Assembly: GCA_042577505.1 (NCBI GenBank)
Contig: JBHPEA010000001.1
Coordinates: 23,880-87,879, forward strand
DNA: 64,000 bases
Origin: Nanobdellota archaeon
GTDB lineage: Archaea; Nanobdellota; Nanobdellia; Woesearchaeales; JACQSR01
Reading direction: 5' to 3'
Shown here piece after piece: positions 7,114-43,259 of this stretch. Every line of letters starts with the position of its first letter. Positions within the stretch are counted from its first letter, which is position 1. The position numbers and the translations under genes were made by a program. The notes under the pieces are model-generated. The model did not search any database. It had not been told where the DNA came from and saw nothing but the letters and a program-made list of their open reading frames with translations.

Positions 7114-7956
7114 TTAATTTAGATCTGCACAAAGATCTTTAAGGTAAGATTCGTTGTAACATCGTTCTCTTAATCCACAACTCTTACACTTAGAAGAAGA
7201 TTTCAATATTGGTGGTAAATCTTTACTCTTTTTCAGATCATTTACTTTCAAAATTAAATCTTTAATCTCATCCCTTAAAAAAACATTAAATGCAATCTTC
7301 CTTCTATCATTAATATCAAGATATGTAATGTACCCTTCTTCAACTGGATGACCGAATTTCTCCTCCATTAATAAACCATAAGTTCCAATCTGTATTTTAT
7401 GCCCTGGCCAAACACCACTCAATGGAGCACTTCCAGTTTTCAACTCAACAGGGATTTTCTTATCGTGATAAACTTCAATTTGATCAATAATCCCACGAAC
7501 ACCCAATGTCTTTGAACTAACACTTAACTCAGAAAGAATTTTTGGAGTTAATTTCTCCCAAAGTTCATCCCCAAATATCTTCTCTTTCTTAATAAAATTG
7601 TAAATATTCAAGGCCCTTTGTCTACTCTCAAACATTATATAATGTAAATTCTGAGTAAAAACCTGATCATTAGTAAGATTTACACTGAGAATCCTATTTT
7701 CATTATTACCAACAACCTCTCTTAGTATTTTCAAATGAACTTTCTTATAAATAGTTTGTATATCTGAAAAAAAACCAGTTGGTTTAAGGGATTTTACAAC
7801 ATTTTCCTCAATTTTATTTATCCCATCATAACACGCATGTCGAACAGTCCCCAATACAAGCGCTTCTTTCGGAGGCTCCTCTAATTTCAATACATATTGT
7901 AAATACAACTTACGTGGACAATATAAATACCCAGAAAGTTGTGAAACCGAAATCAT
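7114..7956 (-). CDS. Cas4-family (DUF83) PD-(D/E)xK exonuclease, stand-alone
   Basis: N-terminal YCPRKLYL Cys; RecB motifs IIDQIE…ELK and QIGTYGLL (QhxxY); C-terminal CKSCGLRERC three-Cys cluster for Fe-S. Confidence 0.6.
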   Translation of the reverse strand: MISVSQLSGYLYCPRKLYLQYVLKLEEPPKEALVLGTVRHACYDGINKIEENVVKSLKPTGFFSDIQTIYKKVHLKILREVVGNNENRILSVNLTNDQVFTQNLHYIMFESRQRALNIYNFIKKEKIFGDELWEKLTPKILSELSVSSKTLGVRGIIDQIEVYHDKKIPVELKTGSAPLSGVWPGHKIQIGTYGLLMEEKFGHPVEEGYITYLDINDRRKIAFNVFLRDEIKDLILKVNDLKKSKDLPPILKSSSKCKSCGLRERCYNESYLKDLCADLN

Positions 7957-36472: not shown

Positions 36473-37108
36473 ATGGGAGATCCAAGAAAACAACGGAAAA
36501 AGTACACGACGCCAAAACATCCTTGGCAAAAAACAAGGATCGACACAGAGAGAGAACTAATCAAAAGTTACGGTCTTAAAAACAAAAAAGAAATCTGGAA
36601 AATGAACTCCCTGCTCAAAAAATTCTCACGTCAAGCTAAAAGTTTTGTAACGTTAACCTCAGCTCAAGCAGAAAAAGAAAGAGCAAGTCTGTTAAAAAAA
36701 GTCAAGGATTTAGGGCTTCTAGGAGAAGAGGCAAAAATGGACGATATTCTTACGTTAAGTATACACGATATCATGAATAGAAGACTTCAATCTGTAGTTG
36801 TAAAAAAGAACCTAGCAAGGACTATGGGACAGGCAAGACAATTTATTACTCACGAACACATTTTAATCGGAGACAAAAAAATCAGTTCTCCATCATACAT
36901 TGTTTCTGTTCAAGAAGAACAATTAATCAACTTCTATGGTTATTCAAAATTACTAAGCCCAGAACATCCAGAACGTTCTGTTGAACCTAAGAAGGAAAAA
37001 CCAAAGAAACACATAACTAGGAGAAGGGAGACAAAATATGCCAAGACCAACACAAAGGCCCACACAAAGGCCCACACAAAGACCAACACAAAGACCAATG
37101 CCAAATAG
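36473..37108 (+). CDS. rps4: 30S ribosomal protein S4 (uS4) with repeat-encoded C-terminal extension
   Basis: [20 protein letters not shown]…; S4 domain; tail [21 protein letters not shown]. Confidence 0.85.
37046..37105. repeat. 12-nt tandem repeat, four clean units plus one degenerate (accaacacaaag/gcccacacaaag)
   Basis: Seen in sequence at the S4 3' end / S11 5' overlap; in-frame in both reading frames. Confidence 0.8.
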
Positions 37109-38292: not shown

Positions 38293-38390
38293 GCGGGGAT
38301 GGCAGAGTGGCCAAATGCGCTAGGTTGAGGGCCTAGTTCCTTAGTGGATGCGCGGGTTCGAATTGCGAAACGAAAGTCCCGTTCCCCGCA
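38293..38390 (+). tRNA. tRNA-Leu(GAG), class II, with a candidate 14-nt intron in the T-loop (38364-38377)
   Basis: Acceptor GCGGGGA/TCCCCGC plus discriminator A; D stem GCA/TGC; anticodon stem CTAGG/CCTAG with loop TTGAGGG; variable arm TCC-TTAGT-GGA; T arm GCGGG-TTCGAAT interrupted by tgcgaaacgaaagt before CCCGT; no encoded CCA. Confidence 0.6.
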
Positions 38391-38397
38391 CTTCAAG

Positions 38398-38886
38398 ATG
38401 AAAGAGGTTCGACCAGATATAAGGGGAGCAATGCTCGTAGAAGGAGTAAAATCACTAGCTCCAGTATTATTGATAGTATTGGTCATAGTAATATCGAAAT
38501 TGTTCGGTATAACTGACATAATTGCCGATGCTGGAATAATAACAGAGTACTTCCCTAATATGGGTGGTTTAGCAAACACGGCTATCATGATGGTTGTCAT
38601 CGTGGTGGTAATGATATTAGCGCTTGTGTTTATGTCAACAAGAAACACAAGGTATGAACTATATCCAGACAGAATTATTGAGTATAAAGGATTACTCAAA
38701 GAAAAAGCAGGTATGGAAATTCCGATATCAAACATCGCAAGGACTACAATCAAGATGTACCCTTTTGTTAACATTGGAAAAATCAAACTCGAACTTTCGG
38801 GAATGGAAAAAGAAAGCAAAAATTTAGATTACATCGAAAATCCAACCGAAATCACACAAGAAATTGAGGCATTGAAAGGAAAATGA
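38398..38886 (+). CDS. Small membrane protein (two TM helices), possibly bacterial-PH (YdbT)-like
   Basis: Start moved to the ATG after the tRNA; hydrophobic helices LAPVLLIVLVIVISKLF and AIMMVVIVVVMILALVFM. Confidence 0.4.
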   Translation: MKEVRPDIRGAMLVEGVKSLAPVLLIVLVIVISKLFGITDIIADAGIITEYFPNMGGLANTAIMMVVIVVVMILALVFMSTRNTRYELYPDRIIEYKGLLKEKAGMEIPISNIARTTIKMYPFVNIGKIKLELSGMEKESKNLDYIENPTEITQEIEALKGK

Positions 38887-39245
38887 AAAAAACAGGATCT
38901 TCAAACGAACACCTGATGGGACTTATTGCTAGTTTGAAGAAGGCTTCAATTGAGCAAAATAATAATTTATGGAAAAGAATCGCAACAGATTTAGAAAAAC
39001 CTTCAAGAAAAAGAAGATCTATTAACTTAGGAAAAATTGCAAAAGTATCTAAAGAAAATGATCATATAATAGTTCCTGGAAAAGTATTAGGGAGTGGAAA
39101 TTTACCTCATAAACTTACCATTTCTGCTTTCCAATTCTCAGGAAGCGCATTAGAAAAACTCCAACAAATCGGAGCTTCAATAGTCCCACTTAATGATTTA
39201 TTAAAAGAAAAACCAAATGGAAAAAAACTTAGAATTATAGGTTAA
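38883..39245 (+). CDS. rpl18e: 50S ribosomal protein L18e (eL18)
   Basis: …HIIVPGKVLGSGNL…ISAFQFSGSALEKLQQIGASIV…; 120 aa; ATGA overlap with the upstream gene. Confidence 0.75.
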   Translation: MKKTGSSNEHLMGLIASLKKASIEQNNNLWKRIATDLEKPSRKRRSINLGKIAKVSKENDHIIVPGKVLGSGNLPHKLTISAFQFSGSALEKLQQIGASIVPLNDLLKEKPNGKKLRIIG

Positions 39246-39246
39246 A

Positions 39247-39663
39247 ATGATAATCGACGCAAATAACAAAATCGTAGGAAGAATTGCAACAGTAGCTGCT
39301 AAAGCCTCTTTATTAGGTGAGAATGTAGACATTGTTAACTGCGAAAATTCATTTGTATCTGGGAATAAATATTCAGTAATTAAAGATTTTGAACACAAAA
39401 GAGAAAGAGGAAGCATGGCAAAAGGACCTTTTTGGCCAAGAAACCCAGAGAGGGTTGTAAGGAGAATAATCAGGGGCATGTTACCTTATAAGGCGGAAAG
39501 AGGAAGGAAAGCTTTCGAGAGGATTAAGTGCTATGTCGGAGTTCCGGATGGTATGGATATTACCAACTCAGAGAAAGTTAAGGGAGCTGAGATAACCAAA
39601 TTGAAAACATTAAATTATATTCAACTAAAAGACGTTTGTAAACAACTAGGTGCAAAAATATGA
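39247..39663 (+). CDS. rpl13: 50S ribosomal protein L13 (uL13)
   Basis: IIDANNKIVGRIATVAAKASLLGENVDIVNCE…RIIRGMLP. Confidence 0.85.
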   Translation: MIIDANNKIVGRIATVAAKASLLGENVDIVNCENSFVSGNKYSVIKDFEHKRERGSMAKGPFWPRNPERVVRRIIRGMLPYKAERGRKAFERIKCYVGVPDGMDITNSEKVKGAEITKLKTLNYIQLKDVCKQLGAKI

Positions 39664-40058
39664 AGACAATAGTTACATCGGGAAAAAGAAAGCGAGCAAT
39701 AGCAAGAGTTGCATTAAAAGAAGGTACTGGAAAATTAAGAGTAAACAACCTATCTATTGATAATTTCAAACCTACTATGTATAAATTGAAAATTCAAGAA
39801 CCATTGCTAATAGCATCAGACATAAGTCCTAAAATTGATATTGAAGTTAATATTAATGGCGGCGGAATGAGTTCACAAGCAGATGCTGCAAGGTTAGGTA
39901 TAGCTAAAGCACTAGTTCAATATTCAAAAGGAGATAAATTGAAAGAAACATTCCTTAATTATGATAGAACTTTGTTAGTAGGAGATGTTAGGCGTAAAGA
40001 AGTTTGCAAACCTAACGACTCTAAAGCTCGTGCTAAGAGGCAGAAGAGTTACAGATAG
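39660..40058 (+). CDS. rps9: 30S ribosomal protein S9 (uS9)
   Basis: SGKRKRAIARVALKEGTGKLRVNN…; C-terminal …AKRQKSYR. Confidence 0.9.
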   Translation: MKTIVTSGKRKRAIARVALKEGTGKLRVNNLSIDNFKPTMYKLKIQEPLLIASDISPKIDIEVNINGGGMSSQADAARLGIAKALVQYSKGDKLKETFLNYDRTLLVGDVRRKEVCKPNDSKARAKRQKSYR

Positions 40059-40406
40059 TTAGTCTTTAATTAGTAGTAACACACAGATTATTCTTTACTT
40101 CGAAAGTACCCACAGGACATTCGAAGATTTTTCTCGAAGATAGACCACTGGTCATCGGACATGTTCATGTGAGATATAAAAATCATTATTCACTTTCTTT
40201 CATAAAAAGAACACGCAAAACTGCCAAATTATGATTTTCGGTTAACTTGGAAATTTTCAATTTCTAAGTTCCCAGAAATCTTCGATTTCTGAGGACACCA
40301 AAAATCAATTACACAGTTTTGCTTAATGTTCTTTTCTTAATTGGGATTTCTTTTATGAAACGAAAAGAAATCTCAACAATAGAATGGGATTCTTGGAGTT
40401 AGCAAA

Positions 40407-41660
40407 ATGAAAGAAGAGAAAATAGATATGTTAGAATTTGTTCCTAAAGAGGTAATTAGCGGAAAAAACCATAATCACTATAGGTTGAACACAGACAAGG
40501 ATAACTTGTATATCTATTTGAATTACCAGGTTGATCAACATAATTCAAAGAGAGAACATTCTTGGACAATCCCGAGGTATATTTCGAGAACAAGTAATAT
40601 GTTTGAAGTTTTGGGTTTATTAAAAGCGGAGATGGGAAAGAAATGTGATGGGAAAATTGTTTTTTGTAACCATGAATTCAAATTAGTTAATAAGATCCTT
40701 GATTGGTTTGAAAGGGAATTAGAGTTTGGAAAAGAAAAGTGGAAGTGGTACATTAAAGTTAATATTAATGAACCATTGAATTTTTTTTACCGAAAGGAAA
40801 TTGAAGAAAAGGTTGTAAATCATTGGGCAAAAAATACTAATCTACCAATCGATCAATCATATCCAAAGAAAGTGAGTTATATTAGTAACACAAAAAATAC
40901 CCAAATTAAGTTTTTTGATTTTGGATCTCTGATAATTGAACGAAAAGTGAATCTGTTTAGTCAGATAGTAAAGAATTTTGTAGAGGCAATGTCAAAAAAT
41001 ATTCTTAACTTTGAAGACAATGAAATAAGATCTTTCATGAGGGGAATAATCGCAGGGGAATCTAATATAGAACTGCATAAAGCTTCAAAACATTATAGGG
41101 TGTATATCACTGCTAAATATTATGAAGAAAGAAAAATGTATCAAGATTGTTTAAAGAGACTAGGGATTGACTCAACGAATTATGAAAACTTTGAAGGATT
41201 AATAATCTCTAAAAAACAAAACAACCTCCAACTCTTAAAACAAAAATTAGTCTGCTTAAGCCCTAAAAAATATAACAAGTTTCTAAGAATGGTGGGTATG
41301 TATCAAGATATCCAAGATTCGAGATATTTTACTGGTATAAAGATACCACATAATATGATTCCGGATGAAATAGTAAATGAAGCTATTATACTTCATCTTG
41401 AGAATCCTATTTTACCTTGCTGGAAAATTGCTGAATTATTAGATATTAGTCCAATTAAAGTTAACCGAATTTTAAAAGAGCATAATTTAGGAAAAAGATT
41501 ACCCAAGACATCGAAAGATAAAATTAGTGAAATCATCAAAATACATAATGAAAATCCTAGATTGCACGCTTATCAAATTGCAAAAATGTGCGGTGTTCAA
41601 GAAGGTGTAGTATGGAGAATTAGAAGGAAACATAGACTAAAAAAGATCCAAAAGCTTTAA
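40407..41660 (+). CDS. LAGLIDADG-like homing-endonuclease-like protein with two C-terminal HTH modules, inserted in the r-protein/RNAP cluster
   Basis: Two LAGLIDADG-like motifs (VLGLLKAEMG, MRGIIAGESN) about 140 aa apart; C-terminal HTH-like repeats (CWKIAELLDISPIKVNRIL and AYQIAKMCGVQEGVVWRIR). Confidence 0.4.
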   Translation: MKEEKIDMLEFVPKEVISGKNHNHYRLNTDKDNLYIYLNYQVDQHNSKREHSWTIPRYISRTSNMFEVLGLLKAEMGKKCDGKIVFCNHEFKLVNKILDWFERELEFGKEKWKWYIKVNINEPLNFFYRKEIEEKVVNHWAKNTNLPIDQSYPKKVSYISNTKNTQIKFFDFGSLIIERKVNLFSQIVKNFVEAMSKNILNFEDNEIRSFMRGIIAGESNIELHKASKHYRVYITAKYYEERKMYQDCLKRLGIDSTNYENFEGLIISKKQNNLQLLKQKLVCLSPKKYNKFLRMVGMYQDIQDSRYFTGIKIPHNMIPDEIVNEAIILHLENPILPCWKIAELLDISPIKVNRILKEHNLGKRLPKTSKDKISEIIKIHNENPRLHAYQIAKMCGVQEGVVWRIRRKHRLKKIQKL

Positions 41661-41686
41661 AAATGGATGTGGTCTCCTTTGACTAT

Positions 41687-41884
41687 ATGATAATACCAAT
41701 TCGTTGTTGGAGCTGCGGAAAACCCATTGCACAGTTATGGGAAGAGTACAAAGAGAGAGTTGAGAAAGGCGAGCAAAAAAAGAAAGTCATGGACGAACTT
41801 GGCTTAGAAAGATATTGCTGCAGATCCATGTTCTTAGGAAATGTCGAACTAATAGAAACAGCAGCAGCTTTTAAGAAGAATTAA
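41687..41884 (+). CDS. rpoN: DNA-directed RNA polymerase subunit N (Rpb10 homolog)
   Basis: MIIPIRCWSCGK…YCCRSM zinc motif; 65 aa from the internal ATG; the track ORF starts at 41663. Confidence 0.8.
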   Translation: MIIPIRCWSCGKPIAQLWEEYKERVEKGEQKKKVMDELGLERYCCRSMFLGNVELIETAAAFKKN

Positions 41885-43259
41885 TTTCATTTCCTTCTTT
41901 CTTTAACATATGCCAATGCATAGGTTGACCTGTCAATACTTTTAGAATACCTAAATTCACATAGTAAGTTACAACAAGCCCATAACTAAACGATGCCATA
42001 AACACTTTATCCACTCTTGCCATATCTTTATCCATAATAACTGCAACTAGACTAGCTATCAACAAACCACTTGTTAGCAAAATATTCCTACTCATCTCCC
42101 CAAAGAACCTTGGCAGATCCATTGGGCCAGGTGGGTGTGTAATGAATGCTAATGTACCAAATAATAACAAGGTAAACAAAAGGAAAGTAAACATATATCC
42201 TGAACAAAATGAGAAAATAGCAAATTTAGATCTAAAACCCAATCTCCTACTCATCAATGCTCTCCAATGCATTTTAACAGAAGAAAAAACACCATAAGCC
42301 CATCTCATCTGTTGTTTATACAAATCCTTTGATGTATGTGGAACTTCACACCCACATTCCAAATCTTCTAAATAAATTAACTTTTTATTTTTAAGCAATA
42401 ATCTAATTGAACATTCAATATCTTCAGTCATACTTCCAGATAACCATCCACCAACTTCTATCAAATCCTTCTTTCTAATAGCCTCAGCAGAACCACAAAG
42501 CAAAGATACTTTTCCAAAATTCTTTACAAAAGGCATGATAAAATAGTGGAACACTTTGCTCATCGTGGCACCGAGCATTGTTATCAAATTTGTATTGGGA
42601 TTTATTATCTTCCACCTTGATTGAACGACTGATAGGTCTGGAATATGTTGATAAGGAGCAATTAACCTTCTCAAAAAATCTCTCTCAGGTAAAAAATCAG
42701 AATCAAATAAAACTAATATTTCTCCATTTGAGAATTTTAATAAATTATTAAGATTCCCTGGCTTATATCCAACATTTCTTTCCCTCTTGAAAACCTTGAT
42801 TTGTTCATGTGCATTTGCAAATTCAATTATCTTTTTCGAAATCTCTGGATTATTGCTATCATCACCTATCAATATTTCAAACTTATCTTTAGGATAATCA
42901 AATTCTAAACACCTTTTAGCACAATTTAATGCAGCAAGCTCATTTAAAGTTGGAATCTGAATAGAAACATAAGGTGCTTTTTCAGTGTCAAAAGAATAAT
43001 GATGAGTTTTTTTCTTAGATGTTAACTTATGAATCATTACAACATAAAATAACACAGATATTACGACAGTAACACCTAAGAAAGCATAGAATGTATTATT
43101 GAAAACCAAGTGTGTAAAATCTAGAAAATCTCTTCCAGCAGCATTGTACCACTCGAAAAATTCCCTTCCAGACACAACCGACCAATGTATTGCGTTTCTC
43201 AGAAACTCCGGTATCATTCTCCAAAATACTGTATTTCCCTCCTTATTATTCCAAGACAA
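41871..43259 (-). CDS. Processive family-2 glycosyltransferase (cellulose/chitin synthase-like) with TM helices
   Basis: DDSNN (DxD-like), DSDF, and QQMRWAYG (QxxRW) motifs; N- and C-terminal TM segments. Confidence 0.75.
   Translation of the reverse strand: MSWNNKEGNTVFWRMIPEFLRNAIHWSVVSGREFFEWYNAAGRDFLDFTHLVFNNTFYAFLGVTVVISVLFYVVMIHKLTSKKKTHHYSFDTEKAPYVSIQIPTLNELAALNCAKRCLEFDYPKDKFEILIGDDSNNPEISKKIIEFANAHEQIKVFKRERNVGYKPGNLNNLLKFSNGEILVLFDSDFLPERDFLRRLIAPYQHIPDLSVVQSRWKIINPNTNLITMLGATMSKVFHYFIMPFVKNFGKVSLLCGSAEAIRKKDLIEVGGWLSGSMTEDIECSIRLLLKNKKLIYLEDLECGCEVPHTSKDLYKQQMRWAYGVFSSVKMHWRALMSRRLGFRSKFAIFSFCSGYMFTFLLFTLLLFGTLAFITHPPGPMDLPRFFGEMSRNILLTSGLLIASLVAVIMDKDMARVDKVFMASFSYGLVVTYYVNLGILKVLTGQPMHWHMLKKEGNEINSS

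Follow-up and report, generated by a model that had tools for sequence, protein, structure and literature searches.

Why does a gene for a LAGLIDADG protein stand between rps9 and rpoN in a conserved archaeal operon? The question is raised by a 64,000-nucleotide stretch of a Nanobdellota archaeon contig (JBHPEA010000001.1; hereafter the window), in which the genes for S13, S4, S11, RpoD, a 180-aa open reading frame (ORF), L18e, L13 and S9 are followed by a 348-nt spacer, a 417-aa ORF and RpoN. An earlier note, made from the letters of the window alone, had taken L13–S9–RpoN to be the normal archaeal order and the spacer and the 417-aa ORF to interrupt it. ORF calls and coordinates bear out both intervening parts, and the order L18e–L13–S9–RpoN is seen in 54 related loci. 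Two origins had been offered for the intruder, namely a free-standing homing endonuclease and a derived, maturase-like gene. In archaea, the known LAGLIDADG endonucleases come from rRNA introns and inteins.

Here, we report a computational analysis of this locus. The 1.6-kb segment from 40059 to about 41686 is probably an element built around a free-standing homing endonuclease gene (HEG) whose target would be the rps9–rpoN junction, with cleavage and homing predicted from the sequence and from a structural model. The reading is drawn from a LAGLIDADG fold with Glu at the catalytic positions, purifying selection on the protein, a fixed site used in either orientation, rarity combined with exact breakpoints, a history apparently decoupled from that of the flanking genes, signs of decay and a probable scar, and a second lineage at the same site. 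The first of the two proposed origins is thus supported by patchy occupancy, exact breakpoints and the fold of the protein. Coordinates of all features are collected in Table 1.

A double-LAGLIDADG protein with C-terminal HTH modules

The 417-aa protein consists of an N-terminal beta-hairpin region (residues 1–60), a double LAGLIDADG core (about 61–300) and two helix–turn–helix (HTH) modules at its C-terminal end. Two LAGLIDADG-like motifs carrying Glu at the catalytic position had been noticed from the translation and are indeed present: E75 and E218, assigned through motif position and not through coordinate superposition, are invariant in an alignment of 51 homologues of 33–56% identity (A1). 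The best-conserved blocks of this alignment are the two motifs, FEVLGLLQAEMGK and FMRGIIAGE. The Pfam family LAGLIDADG_3 matches residues 206–261 with 23.7 bits (cut-off 22.5) and is also matched by 35 of the 51 family members. The two HTH-like modules, likewise claimed earlier, are recovered as two stretches matching HTH_23 at 26.7 bits (cut-off 24.6); in NCBIfam, Cbp1 matches the HTH pair only, partially, at 1.3e-6. The number of HTH modules varies from 0 to 3 among full-length homologues.

An AlphaFold2 model computed from A1 (pLDDT 92.4) contains the alpha-beta-beta-alpha-beta-beta-alpha pattern twice, together with two three-helix modules. When this model was compared with the PDB using Foldseek, the top match was full-length WhiA (3hyi, 2e-6), with the WhiA entries 8dy9 and 8dy7 also found; a probability of 1.0 was reached by WhiA, many I-DmoI entries, I-Tsp061I, the PI-SceI and TliVMA intein endonucleases and the bI3 maturase. 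Sequence relatives among PDB chains were found neither with the single sequence nor with a profile. Whether the protein has a LAGLIDADG fold or is a pure HTH regulator had been named as one of two deciding checks, and the Pfam threshold, the model and the Foldseek probabilities all give the LAGLIDADG fold. On the model, the protein is a monomeric double-LAGLIDADG enzyme for which cleavage is predicted. Nei–Gojobori dN/dS values of the gene, 0.11–0.31 over six pairs, are comparable to those of neighbouring ribosomal protein genes and imply that the protein is under purifying selection.

A fixed site, patchily occupied

A search of 5.8 billion proteins returned 119 homologues with 33–56% identity, throughout from metagenome-assembled genomes (MAGs) of Woesearchaeota or Nanoarchaeota, which makes the host a DPANN archaeon; a few homologues already bear the NCBI name 'LAGLIDADG family homing endonuclease'. 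An exhaustive profile search yielded 73 clusters at E <= 1e-30 and 970 at E <= 1e-3, including N-terminally extended members and proteins built of long HTH-module arrays. Three of the latter (P0186, P0198 and P0180; 600–1557 aa) carry the C-terminal HTH module in 6–13 matched stretches and have no match to the LAGLIDADG core. Distant members of the superfamily are encoded elsewhere (A1 profile E 1e-24 to 1e-42; L123:279-1628, P0210, and L124:1126-2514, P0162), one adjoining RtcB and the other upstream of a TP_methylase gene, and the superfamily may thus contain free-standing genes with other targets. Five records (L001, L002, L003, L031 and L041) are titled 'uncultured Methanosarcinales archaeon', but their ribosomal protein operons cluster among Woesearchaeota and Nanoarchaeota loci; these taxonomic labels are probably wrong.

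Site specificity was assessed in one genome per GTDB species. The scan gave 42 loci, one per record. The gene directly adjoins the 3' end of rps9 in 40; the other two are a locus too near a contig edge to judge and a distant relative with 29% identity. The usual order is S9, gene, RpoN, and in seven loci (L015, L023, L024, L028, L030, L034 and L038) the gene is reversed yet still between S9 and RpoN.

Occupancy was measured on a sample chosen independently of the gene: metagenome contigs were scanned with an S9 alignment, and the 80 loci whose S9 is most similar to that of the window were kept. The junction is empty, with RpoN no more than 60 nt from the S9 stop, in 54 loci; it shows a gap of 61–320 nt in 9, carries the LAGLIDADG-HTH gene in 3 (L073, L090 and L104), holds a different ORF of about 450 aa with LAGLIDADG-like motifs in 2 (L108 and L112) and contains unrelated cargo in 3, the state of the remaining 9 being indeterminate. 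The gene is therefore present in 3 of 71 determinable S9-seeded loci (about 4%), in all three at the S9 3' end as in the genomes. Empty and occupied loci are not set apart by relatedness to the window, since their S9 identities to it overlap (54–64% and 50–65%, respectively). On a neighbour-joining (NJ) host tree of concatenated L18e, L13 and S9 from 88 loci, occupied and empty loci are interleaved; examples are occupied L010 with empty L068 and L064 (d = 0.16–0.20), L002 with L057 (0.22) and L006 with L060 (0.31). Fitch parsimony requires at least 16 presence/absence changes over 77 scored tips against a random mean of 25.9, which indicates some phylogenetic signal, yet many transitions. Lineage-wide conservation at this position, on which the earlier note had let its proposal turn, is therefore not what is found, and the gene is best read as a site-specific mobile gene rather than a core gene.

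Insertion boundaries and a predicted rpoN promoter

The intergenic regions between S9 and rpoN, which the note had proposed to compare, place the boundaries of the insertion at the S9 stop and the RpoN ATG. In closely related occupied and empty alleles, co-linearity ends exactly at the S9 stop codon and resumes exactly at the RpoN ATG, these two codons being the breakpoints. Empty alleles have about 10 nt between the two codons, containing a GGAGG ribosome-binding site; a junction of the L064/L068/L057 type reads ...CAAAAATCGTACCGT TGA GGAGGAAAAA ATGATAATACCAATTCGTTG.... In occupied alleles the GGAGG site is missing, and some 25 nt ahead of the RpoN ATG stands a conserved AAAACCTTTAAAAA...TTTTCTAC module. 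We infer from these sequences that the element supplies a predicted promoter for a leaderless rpoN mRNA. The RpoN start at M9 (41687), rather than the ATG at 41663, is probably the true one, because tblastn alignments of relatives begin at residue 9 of the longer ORF; read from M9, the protein matches PF01194 at 6e-29.

Two further loci bear on the right-hand end. L078 (4351-4479) has no endonuclease gene, yet the rpoN promoter module is kept in its 126-nt gap, a sequence arrangement that suggests a deletion scar. L010 contains the module twice (7121-7157 and 7508-7544), flanking a 23-aa 5' fragment of rpoN. At the left-hand end, the 10-mer AGTAGTAACA is found 0–15 nt after the S9 stop in many occupied loci, whether the gene is forward or reversed, and in no empty site; it may mark an end of the element, form a half-site or act as a processing signal. 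Its interpretation as a decayed copy of the RpoN 5' end was rejected, the mismatches being too many.

The junction has also received a second family of ORFs of about 450 aa (L108:1364-2725 and L112:598-1938), which are 43% identical to each other. Their motifs are FFGLWVGDK and FFAGLFDAEGNV; both proteins are extended at the N-terminus and end in a winged-HTH-like region. Their Pfam LAGLIDADG score, 14.4 bits, is below the cut-off, and membership in the LAGLIDADG class would follow from the motifs, from a co-linear hhalign match to the family of the window (E = 0.0037) and from transitive blastp matches (2e-6 and 5e-6) to proteins that match the A1 profile at 1e-18; on these comparisons the two families appear distantly related. 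L112 displays the same promoter layout of GACAT repeats, GCGC and TTTATAAA as the window's family, and L108 has a single TGGACAT before GCGTCAAA and CTTATAAA.

A probable regulatory region in the spacer

The spacer contains no ORF longer than 32 aa, and coding was therefore rejected as the explanation of its conservation. In the clade of the window, the long spacers align in nearly invariant blocks even though synonymous sites are saturated, and their layout from 5' to 3' comprises CCACTGGACAT-type repeats, a GC-rich stretch and TTATAAA, the block GTGAA..TTATAAA being nearly invariant. More widely, nearly all occupied loci, and L112 with them, share (T)GGACA / CGACA / AGACA direct repeats, a GCGCGCAG-like sequence and TTTATAAA. 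The predicted promoter of the endonuclease gene in the window was assigned from the archaeal consensus. In loci with short spacers only 21–22 nt separate the TATA box from the ATG, so that the mRNA would be leaderless; in the clade of the window, a leader of 135–225 nt is interposed between the two.

The word 'structured', which the earlier note had applied to the spacer, is justified by folding. The RNA of 40200-40415 has a predicted energy of -61.3 kcal/mol against -35.8 +/- 3.5 for shuffles (z = -7.3), and the consensus structure obtained by adding three relatives comprises 37 pairs, of which 10 are compensated. For the sister leader type, 10 out of 31 pairs are compensated; none of 500 shuffles reaches its covariation score, and slid controls collapse. 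This covariation is confined to the central hairpin, so that the outer AAUCACC/GGUGAUU stem, which is invariant, is neither supported nor contradicted by it; by prediction, this stem would cover both the ribosome-binding site and the AUG. The leader in the clade of the window probably limits translation. The perfect 8-bp hairpin described earlier exists, but it begins 14 nt upstream of the position given for it (40287-40305). It belongs to an insert of about 51 nt that is specific to the window and absent from L001, L002 and L039. The ttcgaag repeats reported with it were found as TTCGAA(A)G-like words at 40099-40106, 40120-40126 and 40133-40139. By its sequence, then, the spacer is a regulatory region of GGACA-type repeats, a TATA box and a structured leader. 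Its conserved parts, a promoter with operator-like repeats and the leader hairpin, are not mentioned in the earlier note.

Such a region, together with the fold, raises the alternative that the protein is a domesticated transcription factor of the WhiA kind, whose core no longer cuts and whose HTH modules bind the GGACA-type repeats to regulate the gene itself, rpoN or the ribosomal operon on behalf of the host. WhiA (DUF199) has the same bipartite LAGLIDADG core with a C-terminal HTH, an architecture otherwise known from WhiA alone, and it heads the Foldseek matches. Its HTH binds GACAC, and this domain is said not to occur in homing endonucleases (PMC10243135); conserved GGACA(C/T) repeats lie upstream of the promoter of the window gene. 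The strong purifying selection and the location within an operon for ribosomal proteins and RNA polymerase (RNAP) subunits would suit a regulator too. However, the N-terminal domain of WhiA lacks critical catalytic residues (PMC10243135), whereas E75 and E218 are invariant in the family of the window, and the WhiA-specific Pfam models (WhiA_N, LAGLIDADG_WhiA and HTH_WhiA) do not match the window protein even at E <= 10. Nor do these models appear in the list of the 25 families hit most often by the 51 members, out of 53 hit in all. WhiA is conserved throughout Gram-positive bacteria, its catalytic residues having been lost (PMC10243135, PMC3781837); the present gene is archaeal, is carried by about 4% of sampled relatives and is missing from close ones. 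As for the repeats, the HTH-less members L031 and L039 retain them, and the repeat 10-mer is not enriched in the window (4 matches against 5.4 expected). We therefore regard purely regulatory service to the host as unlikely. A related idea, that the GGACA repeats imitate the 3' end of S9 and thus the target, was set aside after the two were compared, the likeness being unconvincing.

Evolutionary history of the gene

An HEG should be able to part company with its flanks, and several comparisons suggest a decoupled history. The ratio of gene to host protein p-distance has a median of 1.09 and ranges from 0.64 (L003 vs L004, L010 and L006) to 4.5 (L028 vs L090). In two pairs, the proportion of synonymous differences (pS) of the gene is below that of every flanking gene: 0.42 vs 0.48–0.65 in L001/L002 and 0.54 vs 0.63–0.81 in L004/L010. 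The reverse-oriented copies, except that of L015, form one clade in the gene tree, and their hosts are dispersed. For L028/L030, the least saturated pair, dS is 0.11–0.13 in L18e and S4, 0.24 in S11, 0.42–0.44 in RpoD and L13, 0.59 in S9 and 1.13 in the gene; such a mosaic, peaking at the gene, is what one would see had a divergent allele been introduced by recombination along with some flanking sequence. The pair L028 and L090 (host distance 0.11, gene distance 0.72) was considered as a clear case of horizontal replacement and then downgraded, because dS is saturated in both gene and flanks and only faster protein change is shown. Degenerate copies may be present in L040, which has an internal deletion and a frameshift, and in L035, which has a frameshift.

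A number of observations weigh against the HEG reading. Gene and host distances are correlated (Mantel r = 0.41, exceeded in none of 2000 permutations), and the two trees have six shallow bipartitions in common. The gene has therefore been inherited vertically to a large extent, and loss could account for a good part of its patchy distribution. The dS gradient of L028/L030 concerns one pair and is non-monotonic (RpoD 0.42, L18e 0.11). The trees are NJ trees of 300–400 residues, weak at depth, and most synonymous comparisons are saturated. The lesions in L040 and L035 could also be MAG assembly errors. No relative was found on the viral contigs of IMG/VR, which points to no vector, and PHROGs gave weak HTH matches only. 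Finally, unrelated genes also occupy the junction or follow the endonuclease gene, so that the junction is also a permissive, variable spot. This cargo includes two adjacent small ORFs of 127 and 104 aa (L101:718-1385), which by eye look like a HEPN/nucleotidyltransferase pair, a 283-aa enzyme-like ORF (L116:703-1554), a secreted protein (L089:2325-2996), an RNase_T-type exonuclease (L011:3988-4593; PF00929, 4e-15) and an Ogg-HhH-like ORF below the cut-off (L004:7139-7873).

From the correlated distances and the shallow clades common to both trees one may also argue for an old, immobile resident: a single ancient insertion in a DPANN ancestor, vertically inherited, lost many times and kept, for example, by autoregulated selfish persistence or by a role in DNA repair. 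The constant position in all loci and identities (33–56%) resembling those of the neighbouring ribosomal proteins agree with such a history. It would, however, need many independent and precise deletions, each recreating the GGAGG-coupled S9–RpoN junction, and it leaves unexplained the 7-fold spread of gene/host distance ratios, the low pS in two pairs, the spread of the reverse-oriented gene clade across dispersed hosts and the maintenance of invariant catalytic residues under purifying selection. We think it improbable. The remaining alternative, a maturase or an intron-encoded endonuclease whose intron was missed, recalls the usual residence of archaeal LAGLIDADG genes in rRNA introns or inteins and the bI3 maturase among the structural matches, but it is effectively refuted by the anatomy of the locus and with it the maturase-like proposal of the earlier note: the gene lies between complete, separate S9 and RpoN ORFs, starts with its own ATG after a promoter, has no intein splicing blocks and is accompanied by no group I/II intron or tRNA match.

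A proposed homing cycle

In the HEG reading, the enzyme would recognise the uninterrupted rps9–rpoN junction of related genomes, that is, the 3' end of S9, the spacer of about 10 nt with GGAGG and the 5' end of RpoN. It would cut the empty junction, and repair from an occupied allele would copy the element in. As the insertion splits the target site, occupied alleles would be immune. The element would bring its own promoter, upstream of which the GGACA-type repeats may serve as an operator, and in the clade of the window it would also carry the structured leader. At the right-hand end, the TATA box would restore rpoN expression as a leaderless mRNA.

Homing and regulation are not mutually exclusive, and phage I-TevI is both an endonuclease and an autorepressor. 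A more far-reaching and quite speculative possibility is that catalytically competent LAGLIDADG-HTH fusions both home into the rps9–rpoN junction and bind GGACA-type repeats at their own promoter. They would then be living analogues of an intermediate on the way to a WhiA-type factor, and rpoN would have been rewired from S9-coupled translation to a leaderless promoter supplied by the element.

Features of the locus

Table 1. Features at and around the rps9–rpoN junction, in coordinates of the window
Feature	Position	Strand	Remarks
rps9 (ribosomal protein S9)	39660..40058	+	ORF; stop TAG at 40056-40058 is the left boundary of the insertion
Spacer	40059-40406	+	348 nt, between the rps9 stop and the LAGLIDADG-HTH ORF
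AGTAGTAACA, boundary-associated motif	40072..40081	+	only exact copy in the 64-kb window
Operator-like GGNCAT repeats	40111..40162	+	CACAGGACAT at 40111-40120, CACTGGTCAT at 40146-40155, CGGACAT at 40156-40162
Predicted archaeal promoter of the endonuclease gene	40166..40182	+	BRE-like catgtgaga and TATA box TATAAAAA at 40175-40182
Structured 5' leader (predicted)	40205..40406	+	about 200 nt; long conserved hairpin at about 40206-40334, second hairpin at 40341-40376
Perfect 8-bp hairpin, cagaaatc ttc gatttctg	40273..40291	+	lies in the apical-loop insert (about 51 nt) of the conserved hairpin
GGAG	40395-40398	+	possible ribosome-binding site
LAGLIDADG-HTH protein gene	40407..41660	+	417 aa, ATG start, sole long ORF there
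LAGLIDADG motif 1, VLGLLKAEMG	40608..40637	+	residues 68-77, E75 at the catalytic position; model helix 63-75
LAGLIDADG motif 2, MRGIIAGESN	41037..41066	+	residues 211-220, E218 at the catalytic position; model helix 204-218
Two tandem homeodomain-like HTH modules	41355..41636	+	residues about 317-360 and 367-410; helices 320-358 and 370-408
TATA-like TTTAAAAA	41656..41663	+	23 nt ahead of the RpoN start (41687), overlapping the stop codon of the endonuclease gene; predicted replacement rpoN promoter
rpoN (RNA polymerase subunit N / Rpb10)	41687..41884	+	right boundary of the insertion

The LAGLIDADG-HTH gene is present in a single copy within the window. Its ORF has a GC content of 29.7%, compared with 35.9% for the operon and 33.9% for the window, and the S9 encoded before it is 50–65% identical to the S9 of 120 related loci. 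No tRNAs are present in the window, and an Rfam search of 39000-42500 at E <= 10 gave chance-level matches only, with no intron family and no known RNA. Scans for sigma-70 promoters and terminators were uninformative because the host is an archaeon.

Two other places in the operon deserve mention. Between rpoD and rpl18e lies the 180-aa hydrophobic ORF (38344-38886). It reaches 20.4 bits with DUF4013, a weak match that stays under the cut-off of 26.9, and tblastn gave no match to it among 122 related loci. Gaps of 0.9–1 kb are seen at this junction in several relatives, which makes the junction a second variable site in the operon. A 12-nt tandem repeat, AAGACCAACACA, occupies 37043-37098 (4.7 copies, 90% matches) at the overlap of the S4 3' end and the S11 5' end, where it encodes a TNTK-type tail of S4 and a PTQR-type head of the longest S11 ORF.

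Relation to known systems and significance

The closest enzymatic counterparts in archaea are I-DmoI and I-Tsp061I, which share with the window protein the two-domain LAGLIDADG fold, an acidic residue ending each helix and an archaeal host (TM 0.50–0.59 in Foldseek, normalised to the target). They differ in lying within rRNA introns, in their size of about 180–200 residues and in having no HTH, whereas the window gene is free-standing between protein genes and its product adds an N-terminal beta region of 60 residues and, across the family, 0–3 HTH modules. In way of life, the free-standing HEGs of T-even phages (seg, mob and I-TevIII-like genes; 'intronless homing') are similar: they lie between conserved genes, are patchily distributed, co-convert their flanks, carry extra HTH or NUMOD-type modules and are under tight expression control. 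Those enzymes, however, are of the GIY-YIG or HNH class and reside in phage genomes, while the present one is a LAGLIDADG protein in an archaeal chromosome, inside a ribosomal protein/RNAP operon. Free-standing LAGLIDADG ORFs of fungal and algal organelles and the yeast HO gene likewise lie outside introns, and HO has an added C-terminal DNA-binding region. Their hosts are organelles or eukaryotes, HO is derived from an intein and has zinc fingers, and neither HTH arrays nor the targeting of a conserved ribosomal protein junction is found among them. Free-standing LAGLIDADG genes are among the topics taken up in PMC7487136.

In the literature, apart from intron-encoded cases, we found no paper that describes LAGLIDADG genes standing free in archaeal chromosomes or in Woesearchaeota. 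The annotation at the level of the fold is already given by NCBI for some members; what is new is a free-standing LAGLIDADG core with a variable HTH array and its own conserved regulatory region, apparently aimed at a ribosomal protein/RNAP junction. If the HEG reading is true, 'intronless homing' would be extended to cellular archaea and to the LAGLIDADG class. The family would also offer an apparently active parallel to WhiA, for which descent from an invasive endonuclease has until now been deduced from the domesticated end-point alone. Its members would form a natural series of one nuclease core with 0, 1, 2 or 3 HTH modules, which is useful for understanding or engineering extended target recognition. 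In uncultured Woesearchaeota and Nanoarchaeota, moreover, presence or absence of the gene at the rps9–rpoN junction is a useful marker of recombination.

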